38,701 nt of DNA, from the sequence record ON528721; one strand, 5' to 3'. Positions within the stretch are counted from its first letter, which is position 1. Each line of letters starts with the position of its first letter. Made by a program: the position numbers and the translations under genes. Positions 11,675 to 15,118 of this stretch are shown here, in pieces. This stretch comes from Shigella phage ESh8. Under the pieces are notes generated by a model. That model made no database searches and was not told where the DNA came from. It worked only from the letters and a program-made list of their open reading frames with translations.

Positions 11675-12691
11675 ATGAACATCTTCAAGACCAACCCATT
11701 CAAAGCTGTGTCATTCGTAGAGTCTGCCGTTAAGAAAGCGCTGGAGACCTCCGGCTACCTAATGGCTGATATCAAATATGATGGTGTGCGCGGTAACATT
11801 GTGGTTGACAACGTGGCTGAGGCCGCATGGGTGTCTCGCGTATCCAAGTTCATCCCGGCGCTGGAACACCTGAACGGTTTCGATAAGCGCTGGCAGCAAC
11901 TACTGAACGATGACCGCTGCATCTTCCCGGACGGCTTCATGCTGGATGGTGAACTGATGGTCAAAGGCGTAGACTTCAACACGGGGTCTGGCCTACTGAG
12001 AACCAAGTGGCTCAAGAAGAATAACTTCATGTTTGACCGTGGTGGTGTTGAGCCGCTGAAAGGTTCCAAAGTAGCCTTTGAGTTAGACCCCAAGCTACTC
12101 AGTGTTCGCCTGTATGCTGTCATGCCGATTCACATTGCGGAGTCTGGCGAGGACTACGATGTACAGAACCTGCTGATGCCGTATCATGTGGAAGCCATGC
12201 GCTCTCTTCTGGTTGAATACTTCCCGGAAATCGAGTGGCTTATCGCTGAGACCTACGAGGTCTACGATATGGATTCGCTGACTGAACTGTACGAAGAGAA
12301 GCGTGCCGAAGGTCACGAGGGTCTCATTGTGAAAGACCCACAAGGCATCTACAAGCGAGGCAAGAAGTCTGGCTGGTGGAAGCTCAAGCCTGAGTGTGAA
12401 GCTGACGGTATCATTCAGGGTGTCAATTGGGGAACCGAAGGGTTAGCCAACGAGGGTAAAGTGATAGGCTTTAGTGTGCTTCTTGAGACTGGTCGTTTAG
12501 TAGACGCCAACAACATCTCTCGCGCACTGATGGACGAGTTCACAGCCAACGTTAAAGCCCACGGTGAAGACTTCTACAACGGGTGGGCCTGTCAGGTCAA
12601 CTATATGGAAGAGACCCCGGACGGCTCCCTGCGTCACCCTAGCTTCGAGAAGTTCCGAGGCACTGAGGACAACCCTCAAGAGAAAATGTAA
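11675..12691 (+). CDS. 1.3: ATP-dependent DNA ligase, 338 aa from ATG 11675
   Basis: KYDGVR adenylation motif; MNIFKTNPFKAVSFVESA... matches T7 ligase; C-terminal FRGTEDNPQEKM identical to T7 ligase end. Confidence 0.95.
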   Translation: MNIFKTNPFKAVSFVESAVKKALETSGYLMADIKYDGVRGNIVVDNVAEAAWVSRVSKFIPALEHLNGFDKRWQQLLNDDRCIFPDGFMLDGELMVKGVDFNTGSGLLRTKWLKKNNFMFDRGGVEPLKGSKVAFELDPKLLSVRLYAVMPIHIAESGEDYDVQNLLMPYHVEAMRSLLVEYFPEIEWLIAETYEVYDMDSLTELYEEKRAEGHEGLIVKDPQGIYKRGKKSGWWKLKPECEADGIIQGVNWGTEGLANEGKVIGFSVLLETGRLVDANNISRALMDEFTANVKAHGEDFYNGWACQVNYMEETPDGSLRHPSFEKFRGTEDNPQEKM

Positions 12692-12701
12692 CCAACTAAC
12701 T

Positions 12702-12733
12702 GGCTCACCTTCACGGGTGGGCCTTTCTTCGTT
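12702..12733 (+). terminator. Intrinsic terminator (TE-like) ending the early operon
   Basis: 8-bp stem GGCTCACC/GGTGGGCC (one G-U) with 6-nt loop followed by TTTCTTCGTT. Confidence 0.75.
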
Positions 12734-12739
12734 CCGGGG

Positions 12740-12762
12740 AATTAACCCTCACTAACAGGAGA
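12740..12762 (+). promoter_or_regulatory. T3-type phage RNAP promoter, AATTAACCCTCACTAACAGGAGA
   Basis: Consensus match. Confidence 0.9.
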
Positions 12763-12770
12763 CACACACC

Positions 12771-12848
12771 ATGTGGCTTATCCTATTCGCTATCGTCGCA
12801 ACGCTGGGATTAATGGCTGCCGACGACAACATTTGGCCTGATTGTTAA
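12771..12848 (+). CDS. gp1.5-like tiny hydrophobic peptide, 25 aa
   Basis: ATG 9 nt after promoter +1 region; MWLILFAIVATLGLMAADDNIWPDC; T7 has a 29-aa gene 1.5 here. Confidence 0.45.
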   Translation: MWLILFAIVATLGLMAADDNIWPDC

Positions 12849-12860
12849 GGAGACAACATC

Positions 12861-13118
12861 ATGCGTTTACACTTCAACACATCAAATGGTATCTTTTCGG
12901 TTCGCCGTGAAGACCGCTCTACAGCAGTGGCCTCTGAGCGCAACGCCAAGCTGCCGCTGATTGGTTCGGTCGTCCCACTGTCGCCCCGTGTTCACCTGCT
13001 GATAACTCGTGGAGAGTTCATTAAGGCGATGAATAAAGAGCGCCCGCATCTGGAAGCCGTGGTCACTTACTGGCCTCGCATCCGTCTGTTCGTTAAGTGG
13101 ATTAAGGAGGTGCTGTAA
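12861..13118 (+). CDS. 1.6: gp1.6-like hypothetical protein, 85 aa
   Basis: RBS TAAGGAG; position and size as T7 gp1.6. Confidence 0.75.
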   Translation: MRLHFNTSNGIFSVRREDRSTAVASERNAKLPLIGSVVPLSPRVHLLITRGEFIKAMNKERPHLEAVVTYWPRIRLFVKWIKEVL

Positions 13119-13609
13119 TGTTACAACATCATTGGAACAAACCAGACTTAGAAGCCCGCTTCCCGGTTAACTCTGTTGTGCGATACTCCGGCGGTGGCCT
13201 CAAGCGTATCTTAGGGATGAGCGGAGTGGTCACTGGTCACTCGCACACAGGTCGCGTTAAGGTTCGCTTCGGTACTCAGCACGCTGAGGTTCTTCCTGAC
13301 AACCTGATTCCGCTGCCTAAAGCTGACGTTAAGACTCCGAACGTGGAAGCACCGAAGGCAGAAGTCAAGTCTGACGTGACACACCCGAACCACTACATGC
13401 TGTTCGACAACGTGGAAGCCATTGAGGTTATCGCCCGGTCAATGACCGTCGAGGCGTTCCGTGGGTACTGCCTTGGGAATATTTTGAAGTACCGCCTGCG
13501 TGCTGGCAAGAAATCCGAACTGGCAACGATGGAGAAAGACCTTAAGAAAGCGGCTTTCTATCAGGAACTGTTTGACAAACACCGGGGGCTGTGTTATGAC
13601 GCTTCGTGA
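13118..13609 (+). CDS. 1.7: gp1.7-like protein (nucleotide kinase in T7), 163 aa
   Basis: C-terminal region [43 protein letters not shown] resembles T7 gp1.7. Confidence 0.7.
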
Positions 13610-13742
13610 ATGCTGCGATTGGTGTGCCGCTAAGTGGAACCAAGCTATTGAGGATGGTGACAAGGCGGCTGCTGACGCTTACAAACAACTGTACGCGCTG
13701 TGGGAGCGGCGCTTTAAGGAGGCTCAAAGTGGAGCAACGTGA
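13596..13742 (+). CDS. 1.8: gp1.8-like protein, 48 aa
   Basis: 48 aa as T7 gp1.8; start overlaps end of 1.7. Confidence 0.6.
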
Positions 13743-13893
13743 ACAGAAATACCTTCTGACGATAGAAGGAAACACCGAGTCCTTTGAGGTTCCGGTATTC
13801 GCCCGGTCTCTCGAAGAGGCAACGCTACAGGCTGAACATTATGAGGACGCTGGGTTCGTAGTGACTCGTATCCGTCCAGAAGTGAAAGCCTAA
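13729..13893 (+). CDS. 2: Host RNA polymerase inhibitor gp2, 54 aa, GTG start
   Basis: AGGAGG 7 nt upstream of GTG 13729; ...[38 protein letters not shown] aligns with T7 gp2 ...[34 protein letters not shown]. Confidence 0.75.
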
Positions 13894-13913
13894 TTACCCT
13901 CACTAAAGGGAAC
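13891..13913 (+). promoter_or_regulatory. Variant phage RNAP promoter upstream of SSB gene, TAATTACCCTCACTAAAGGGAAC
   Basis: Core CCCTCACTAAAGGGA; same upstream variant as the phiOL-like site. Confidence 0.75.
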
Positions 13914-13945
13914 AACCCAATCATTAACCACAAAGGAGAAACATT

Positions 13946-14644
13946 ATGGCTGGTTTCAAGAAGAAAATCTACACATCTGGTCTTGGCACTGCTGAGCCTT
14001 ATGCTTACCTGAGTAAGCCGGATTATGGCAACGAAGAGCGTGGCTTCGGCAACCCTCGTGGTATCTATAAGGTAGACCTGACTCTTTCCAATAAAGACCC
14101 GCGCTGTCAGGCAATGGTCGATGAAATCGTGAAGACTCACGAAGAGGCTTATGCTGCTGCCGTGGAAGAGTTCGAGGCTAACCCGCCGCAGGCACAGCGT
14201 GGTAAGAAACCGCTGAAACCTTACGAGGGCGACATGCCGTTCTTCGATAACGGTGACGGTACGACTACCTTCAAGTTCAAATGCTATGCGTCTTTCCAAG
14301 ACAAGAAGACCAAAGAGACCAAACACATCAATCTGGTAGTGGTCGATAGCAAAGGTAAGAAGATTCAGGACGTTCCGATTATCGGTGGTGGCTCTAAGCT
14401 GAAAGTGAAATACTCTCTGGTGCCTTACAAATGGAACACAGCTGTGGGCGCAAGCGTCAAGCTACAACTGGAGTCCGTGATGCTGGTCGAACTGGCTACC
14501 TTCGGTGGTGGCGGTGAAGATGAGTGGGCCGATGAAGTCGAAGACGGTGGTTACACTGCGAGTGAATCCCGTCAGTCCCGCGATGAGCAGGAGTGGCAGG
14601 AAGACGAGCACGAAGAAACCCCGGATGAGGATGAGGATTTTTAA
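13946..14644 (+). CDS. 2.5: Single-stranded DNA-binding protein gp2.5, 232 aa
   Basis: 232 aa as T7 gp2.5; highly acidic C-terminal tail ending in F. Confidence 0.95.
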   Translation: MAGFKKKIYTSGLGTAEPYAYLSKPDYGNEERGFGNPRGIYKVDLTLSNKDPRCQAMVDEIVKTHEEAYAAAVEEFEANPPQAQRGKKPLKPYEGDMPFFDNGDGTTTFKFKCYASFQDKKTKETKHINLVVVDSKGKKIQDVPIIGGGSKLKVKYSLVPYKWNTAVGASVKLQLESVMLVELATFGGGGEDEWADEVEDGGYTASESRQSRDEQEWQEDEHEETPDEDEDF

Positions 14645-14647
14645 ACC

Positions 14648-15118
14648 ATGAACCTGCGGGAGAAACTGGAGGCTTACTCTAAAGTGTCTCCCTCTGGTTG
14701 CTGGGAGTGGCAGCGAGCCACTGCTGGGAAGGGTTATGGTTTAATATCCATAGGTCGCCAGCGTCAAGCATATGCGCACAGGGTGTCATACTTCATCTTC
14801 AACGGGCCAATTTCCGAAGGTCTTGTAGTCAGACATAAGTGTGATAACCCTTGCTGCGTTAACCCTGAGCACCTAGAAGTTGGGACTCAGGAAGACAACA
14901 TGCAGGACTGTAAGAAGCGTGGTCGTCTATCCGCGCCACCAGTAGCGAGAGGTGTACACAATCACAAGACCAAGCTGACCGATGAACAGGTGGCCTACAT
15001 TGTGAACTCCAAGAAGAGTAGCCGCGAGTTAGCCAACGAGTTTGGAGTCTCGCCGCAGGCTATAAACTGGAGGAAGAAACAATGGCAGGCTACGGCGCAA
15101 AAGGAATCCGAAAAGTAG
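14648..15118 (+). CDS. HNH-family endonuclease with C-terminal helix-turn-helix-like DNA-binding tail (putative free-standing homing endonuclease), 156 aa
   Basis: Motifs AHRVSYFIFNG...VVRHKCDNPCCVNPEHLEVGTQEDN (His-Asn-His core, Cys ligands); C-terminal LTDEQVAYIVNS..SSRELANEFGVSPQAINWRKK; overlaps start of endonuclease I gene by 37 nt. Confidence 0.8.
   Translation: MNLREKLEAYSKVSPSGCWEWQRATAGKGYGLISIGRQRQAYAHRVSYFIFNGPISEGLVVRHKCDNPCCVNPEHLEVGTQEDNMQDCKKRGRLSAPPVARGVHNHKTKLTDEQVAYIVNSKKSSRELANEFGVSPQAINWRKKQWQATAQKESEK

Follow-up and report, generated by a model that had tools for sequence, protein, structure and literature searches.

The window analyzed here is the 38,701-nucleotide sequence of Shigella phage ESh8 (ON528721), and the whole of it is the genome of a T3-like (Teetrevirus) phage. 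The 1.1 kb around genes 1.7, 1.8 and 2 shares 94-97% identity with T3, phiSG-JL2 and some 100 other Teetrevirus records. The three genes are read from the same strand and overlap one another (Table 1). The stop codon of gene 1.6 and the ATG of gene 1.7 have one base in common (TAATG), genes 1.7 and 1.8 share 14 nt (ATGACGCTTCGTGA), and genes 1.8 and 2 also share 14 nt (GTGGAGCAACGTGA), such that the last five codons of gene 1.8 (QSGAT) overlap the start of gene 2. An earlier reading of the letters alone, here called the sequence-only reading, had proposed that gene 1.8 starts inside the end of 1.7 and that gene 2 overlaps the 1.8 stop. Both proposals hold, given that ATG 13596 sits 14 nt within 1.7 and that the second overlap can be read directly, and the span proposed, 13596-13893, runs exactly from the start of 1.8 to the stop of gene 2.

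Table 1. Features in and around the 1.7/1.8/2 region of the ESh8 window (positions are those of the window)
Feature	Position	Strand	Remarks
Promoter phi1.5 (phage RNA polymerase)	12740..12762	+	AATTAACCCTCACTAACAGGAGA
Gene 1.7, 163 aa	13118..13609	+	stop TGA 13607-13609; DUF3310 / nucleotide-kinase family
Gene 1.8, 48 aa	13596..13742	+	ATG 13596, stop TGA 13740-13742
Open stretch in the gene 2 frame, 5' of the GTG	13606..13728	+	predicted non-coding in the gene 2 frame
Shine-Dalgarno sequence of gene 2	13716..13722	+	AAGGAGG, within 1.8 codons K-E-A (Lys-Glu-Ala)
Gene 2, 54 aa	13729..13893	+	probable start GTG 13729, stop TAA 13891-13893; Gp2-type inhibitor of host RNA polymerase, by homology
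Promoter phi2.5	13891..13913	+	overlaps the gene 2 stop codon; core CCCTCACTAAAGGGA at 13897-13911
HNH_3 homing-endonuclease ORF, 156 aa	14648-15118	+	Pfam 7e-14

Genes and promoters of the region

Genes 1.5, 1.6, 1.7, 1.8 and 2 form one compact unit under phi1.5. The core of this promoter is the stretch labeled "T3 promoter phi1.5" in AJ318471, from which it differs only in the first base, and the hairpin of the early terminator TE lies just 5' of it. The T3 annotation of the 1.6/1.7/1.8/2 stretch has no promoter or terminator between genes, and transcription of gene 2 would come from phi1.5 and from phage promoters upstream. The records of T3, phiSG-JL2 and phiYeO3-12 mark phi2.5 at the corresponding position, and its core sequence was counted at 12 sites, compared to 0 expected by chance.

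The window is a circular permutation of the T3 map, with gene 1.7 at 13118 as compared to 8061 in T3. Late genes (17.5 and 19.5-like ORFs) lie at the left end, and the permuted map therefore places the genome ends or a terminal repeat inside the window. The HNH_3 ORF sits 3' of gene 2.5, which encodes the single-stranded DNA-binding protein (SSB), and 5' of an ORF starting at 15082, presumably gene 3. Given that T3 has gene 3 directly after 2.5, the HNH_3 ORF is an insertion relative to T3.

The product of gene 1.7 matches Pfam DUF3310 (7.5e-22) and PHROG families 4943 and 2585, annotated as nucleotide kinase, and the location of the gene agrees with that of the annotated gene 1.7 of T3. The product of gene 1.8 matched no Pfam family. 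It can be placed in the gp1.8 family by its match to phrog_1312 (E=5.6e-18, with residues 1-44 on profile positions 2-45 of 46) together with the location of its gene directly 5' of gene 2. The similarity of Serratia phage SALSA and Citrobacter phage SH1 to the window ends exactly at the 1.8 ATG and is missing from the stretch corresponding to window 13560-13605. In both, the DNA is unrelated to gene 1.7 right up to that ATG and a different gene precedes 1.8 (in SALSA through an ATGA overlap), and codons 2-3 of 1.8 vary synonymously only. This break suggests that 1.8 and gene 2 are transferred together as a module and that the start of 1.8 is a boundary of recombination. In Klebsiella phage mtp14, a GAG to TAG change in codon 19 of 1.8, homologous to window position 13650, would shorten gp1.8 to 18 aa, suggesting that gene 1.8 is dispensable in mtp14 or that the base is an error.

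Gene 2 lies between 1.7 (DUF3310)/1.8 and the SSB gene 2.5 (Pfam SBB_T7, 4.8e-87), in the class II region, and its 54-aa product is small and acidic, with 11 Asp/Glu residues. The product matches the Pfam family PF16857 (RNA_pol_inhib) with 82.1 bits (cut-off 27; E=2.7e-23), and the domain starts at residue 6 and covers profile positions 1-47 of 47. It also matches phrog_1307, "RNA polymerase inhibitor" (E=1.5e-25), and the structure of T7 Gp2 (2WNM; phmmer E=1.2e-8), with residues 5-52 on T7 13-61. In the phmmer alignment R47/R49 (TRIRP) fall on T7 R56/R58 (TRVRP), and F19 falls on T7 F27. Residues R56/R58 of strand beta-3 of T7 Gp2 bind the beta-prime jaw of RNA polymerase, and the conserved F27 is also important (PMC3541766). 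Judged by the Pfam, PHROG and PDB matches together, the 54-aa product is a clear homologue of T7 Gp2, in line with the sequence-only reading, which had named gene 2 a homologue of the host RNA polymerase inhibitor. By homology, it would bind host RNA polymerase at the beta-prime jaw and turn off transcription by the host enzyme following the takeover by the phage polymerase.

The start of gene 2

The translation of gene 2 probably starts at GTG 13729, to which we would assign a probability of about 0.9 from sequence comparison. Within the 1.8 frame, an AGGAGG occupies 13717-13722. Six nucleotides separate it from the GTG, whose first G is 7 positions past the last G of the motif. The sequence-only reading had described both the distance and the position of the motif in the 1.8 coding sequence in the same way. 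Throughout the window there are 18 copies of AGGAGG on the + strand as compared to 3 on the - strand. In 14 of the 18 + strand copies, the start codon of an ORF of at least 49 codons lies within 4-10 nt downstream, which argues that the site at 13717 is more than a chance occurrence. The longer AAGGAGG is invariant in 18 T3-type and five phiYeO3-12-type sequences; in one of the latter, from Klebsiella phage 175002 (L088), it is unchanged while adjacent synonymous sites differ. Ribosomes would reach GTG 13729 by direct binding to AAGGAGG.

The pattern of substitution was used to compare the reading frames on either side of the GTG. Variant codons in an alignment of the 18 T3-type sequences were scored as synonymous or nonsynonymous. 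From 13599 to 13728 there are 16 synonymous and 8 nonsynonymous variant codons in the gene 1.8 frame and 5 and 16, respectively, in the gene 2 frame (Fisher's exact p=0.007), counts in which the number of independent substitutions is limited, given that the T3-type sequences are closely related. The gene 2 frame 3' of the GTG has 16 synonymous and 10 nonsynonymous variant codons, and control non-coding frames have 3/20, 3/21 and 1/25. Upstream of the GTG, the gene 2 frame resembles the non-coding controls.

There is no start codon between GTG 13729 and the start of the Pfam domain. In an assay of Gp2 activity, a fragment of T7 Gp2 comprising residues 14-59 slowed the growth of E. coli expressing it (PMC3541766), suggesting that the short N-terminus obtained by initiation at GTG 13729 would be sufficient. 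The curated T3 records X05031 and AJ318471 give a 54-aa gp2 from the homologous GTG, with the ribosome binding site marked in X05031, and so agree with the GTG start that had been proposed for ESh8. A search of the accessible literature gave no direct protein evidence for a T3-type gp2, be it from N-terminal sequencing, mass spectrometry or ribosome profiling.

The start of gene 2 is part of a 52-nt near-invariant island at 13692-13743, in which the 18 T3-type sequences have only one singleton and the two changes of T3 itself. The island spans a conserved C-terminal motif of gp1.8, the Shine-Dalgarno sequence, the GTG and the overlap, and the stretches beside it carry many synonymous differences. 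A 59-nt junction is 100% identical in 30 records.

Longer open frames and the public annotation of gp2

The frame of gene 2 is open from 13600 to 13893 in 18 of 18 T3-type sequences, and no T3-type sequence has a stop codon in this frame between 13600 and 13728. Longer forms of gp2 must be excluded instead by the substitution pattern and by the phiYeO3-12-type relatives. To gauge what the open frame means, gp1.8 was randomly recoded with the codon usage of the window, and 87.5% of the synonymous recodings leave the gene 2 frame open. The openness of the 95-aa frame therefore carries no information, and the idea that the long frame is meaningful in itself was rejected on this basis. Judged from these sequence tests, the long frame upstream of the GTG is a predicted by-product of the amino-acid make-up of gp1.8 that would not be translated as part of gp2.

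Initiation at GTG 13606 would give a product of 95 aa, with the first 41 codons overprinted on 1.8 in another frame. This start is very unlikely, even though its frame is open in all 18 T3-type sequences, its GTGA overlap with the 1.7 stop resembles a coupling junction, and VSG32 and phiCFP-1 are annotated from it. The 5 synonymous and 16 nonsynonymous variant codons of the extension are like those of the control frames, and the frame is one that most recodings of gp1.8 would keep open. No Shine-Dalgarno sequence lies upstream of this GTG, and in SALSA and SH1 two preceding codons change the amino acid in this frame while remaining synonymous in the 1.8 frame. The equivalent frame of phiYeO3-12-type relatives ends in stop codons and is not joined to gp2. 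Lastly, the Pfam domain begins only at residue 47 of the 95-aa ORF.

A start at ATG 13654, which would result in a 79-aa protein, or at the adjacent GTG 13657 is slightly less likely still. ATG 13654 is the sole ATG in the open frame, and SH1 (79 aa) and Sekstaphage-1 (77 aa) are annotated from its neighborhood. However, the codon at this site is M in 10 of the 18 sequences, L (CTG) in 6 and R (AGG) in 2, with gp2 downstream unaffected; the only purine-rich motif, GAGG, abuts the ATG without a spacer; and the substitution pattern argues against this form just as it does against the 95-aa form. All three upstream starts were rejected by the synonymous and nonsynonymous counts, the phiYeO3-12-type relatives, the non-conservation of the ATG and the lack of a spaced Shine-Dalgarno sequence.

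The least likely alternative is that 1.8 and 2 are one gene, expressed by programmed frameshifting or split by a frameshift in sequencing, for although gene 2 occupies the +1 frame relative to 1.8, its frame is open throughout 1.8, and a K11-type contig has the two genes joined by a 1-nt deletion, the same layout of frames is found in at least 36 independent records and is thus not a sequencing error; the frame relation of 1.8 and 2 varies by lineage (in T3 the stop precedes the GTG, the phiYeO3-12-type has an ATGA in another frame and T7 has a 2-nt gap), so that no conserved frameshift site is possible; one relative (L026) has gene 2 without any 1.8; and the two products match separate PHROG families, each from end to end. 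A fusion by frameshifting was ruled out on the varying frame relation. The deletion in the K11-type contig (L040, IMGVR_UViG_2974603841_000001, about 2250-2440) lies in an AAAA run just past the gene 2 ATG and puts gp2 in frame with 1.8, either as a natural fusion or as a homopolymer sequencing error. The sequence-only reading had named initiation at a different codon and a single frameshifted ORF as findings that would speak against it, and the comparative tests reject both.

The public records of near-identical DNA contain five lengths of gp2. The product is 54 aa in T3, phiSG-JL2, LL2, Patroon, SALSA, RPN15 and KP13MC5-2, 95 aa in VSG32 and phiCFP-1, 79 aa in SH1, 77 aa in Sekstaphage-1 and 58 aa in ESh12, where the difference comes from an indel near the stop. 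AAGGAGG is marked as a ribosome binding site in X05031, LL2 and Patroon. Several records omit gene 1.8, and the 95-aa call swallows 1.8 in another frame. On the comparisons above, the correct call would be the 54-aa, GTG-started gp2 with a separate 1.8. The value of the result is as a check on annotation, with little for discovery.

Related phages, translational coupling and gp2 dosage

The map of 1.7, 1.8 and 2 is correct but already known, as T3 has been annotated since 1987 with the 54-aa, GTG-started gp2 and its ribosome binding site (X05031, Schmitt et al. 1987; see also AJ318471, strain Luria). T3 is like the window in gene order, the 14-nt 1.7/1.8 overlap, AAGGAGG, the GTG start, a 54-aa gp2 and the placement of phi2.5 on the stop codon. 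Comparison of the two gp2 proteins, which had been suggested as a check, gives 51 of 54 identical residues. The only difference in layout is that a CAA to TAA change at window position 13725 ends gp1.8 five codons earlier in T3, at 43 aa, such that 1.8 ends 2 nt before the GTG and does not overlap gene 2. In phiSG-JL2 (EU547803), the annotation agrees base for base with the layout in ESh8, including the two 14-nt overlaps and the GTG start; gp1.8 is 48 aa, gp2 is 100% identical, and the region differs from that of the window by only a few substitutions (97.6% identity).

T7 Gp2 (PDB 2WNM, 2LMC and 4LK0), a characterized inhibitor of E. coli RNA polymerase, belongs to the same fold family, PF16857. 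Like gene 2 of ESh8, T7 gene 2 lies between 1.8 and 2.5, and R56/R58 and F27 are conserved. Unlike the window gp2, to which it is about 50% identical, T7 Gp2 is a 64-aa protein whose N-terminus is longer and whose gene begins with ATG, with a 2-nt gap between 1.8 and this start. In K11-type and T7-type phages gp2 begins at an ATG that lies 4 and 16 residues, respectively, ahead of the first beta strand, a placement that favors GTG 13729 in ESh8. T7-like phages in general have overlapping starts and stops in this region.

A second allele of the 5' end of gene 2 is present in 55 phage records, phiYeO3-12 (AJ251805) and 54 others. Among the sequences compared, it is carried by phiYeO3-12 (L085:471-707), L005, L007, L088 and L089, in DNA homologous to window 13716-13760. 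These phages have the same 1.7, 1.8 and position of AAGGAGG as the window and a near-identical inhibitor domain, but the start codon is an ATG behind a 7-nt spacer, the 1.8 frame relation is shifted by one, the ATG overlaps the 1.8 stop as ATGA, and a TAA lies directly 5' in frame. The retention of AAGGAGG despite the differences in start codon and frame relation argues that the initiation site is conserved. The phiYeO3-12-type gp2 has 78 aa, and 73 extra nucleotides encode a Cys-rich N-terminal segment (MSQCNNGCQYAKDVGMENHSCANRCMYS). The segment holds two CxxxC motifs, which are possibly metal-binding. The ESh8 window carries the short, T3-type allele, and a search of the window for a relative of the 73-nt segment found none. 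The host genera of the two alleles overlap.

One carrier of the second allele, Klebsiella phage 175002 (L088), is classified as a Przondovirus and has a Teetrevirus-like 1.7-1.8-2 module of about 89% identity with a phiYeO3-12-type gene 2. The module is followed by a T7/K11-style promoter (GACTCACTATAGGGA) in place of a T3-type phi2.5. This arrangement suggests exchange of the module between genera.

The layout of the region is that of coupled genes on one strand, in which 1.7/1.8 and 1.8/2 each overlap by 14 nt and 1.6/1.7 by 1 nt. The 1.8 stop is 11 nt downstream of the gene 2 start in ESh8, 2 nt upstream of it in T3, and overlaps it in the phiYeO3-12-type. Given its position in ESh8, ribosomes that finish 1.8 could also re-initiate at the GTG, and termination-reinitiation coupling from 1.8 to 2 may occur in addition to direct binding. 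The strong, independent Shine-Dalgarno sequence suggests that such coupling is not obligatory. Control by RNA structure was also considered. The minimum-energy fold of 13680-13790 pairs the Shine-Dalgarno region with 13776-13788, but the structure is not significant (z = -1.66; 15 of 200 shuffles fold equally well), and the proposal that structure hides the Shine-Dalgarno sequence and start codon is unsupported. A search of 12600-14700 with Rfam gave no match at E<=1.

In E. coli, initiation at GTG is several-fold less efficient than at ATG. The sequence-only reading had suggested that the non-ATG start may tune the dosage of the inhibitor. That the GTG is adaptive, selected for low gp2 or for dependence on 1.8 translation, and not a neutral accident of history, seems doubtful. 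The GTG is found in 18 of 18 aligned T3-type sequences and in 2 of 2 metagenome contigs. In addition, 1.8 of T3 ends before the GTG, where the overlap does not block a G to A change, yet the GTG is kept. The strongest possible Shine-Dalgarno sequence stands beside a weak codon, a pairing that recurs at T3 gene 19, where a GTG is found behind TAAGGAGG. Among the 54 annotated starts of T3 there are 49 ATG, 4 GTG and 1 TTG.

On the other side, the T3-type junctions are near-identical by descent, as seen in the 30 records with identical junctions, so that retention of the GTG represents very few independent trials and has little power to show selection. Metagenome and viral contigs were also searched for a T3-type junction with ATG; all 6 matches have GTG, although the matches are few and closely related and 4 of them are virus-collection contigs already among the aligned 18. 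Moreover, in the same hosts the phiYeO3-12-type (55 records), K11-type and T7-type phages make this inhibitor from an ATG, and so speak against a weak start being needed in general.

A still less probable extension of adaptive tuning is that selection has joined the GTG, the maximal Shine-Dalgarno sequence and the stop of 1.8, 11 nt 3' of the GTG, into a device setting the output of gp2 relative to that of gp1.8. In that case, the two forms of gene 2, T3-type (short, GTG) and phiYeO3-12-type (ATG, with the CxxxC...CxxxC extension), would be alleles of the inhibitor that differ in function and are exchanged among Teetrevirus phages by recombination.
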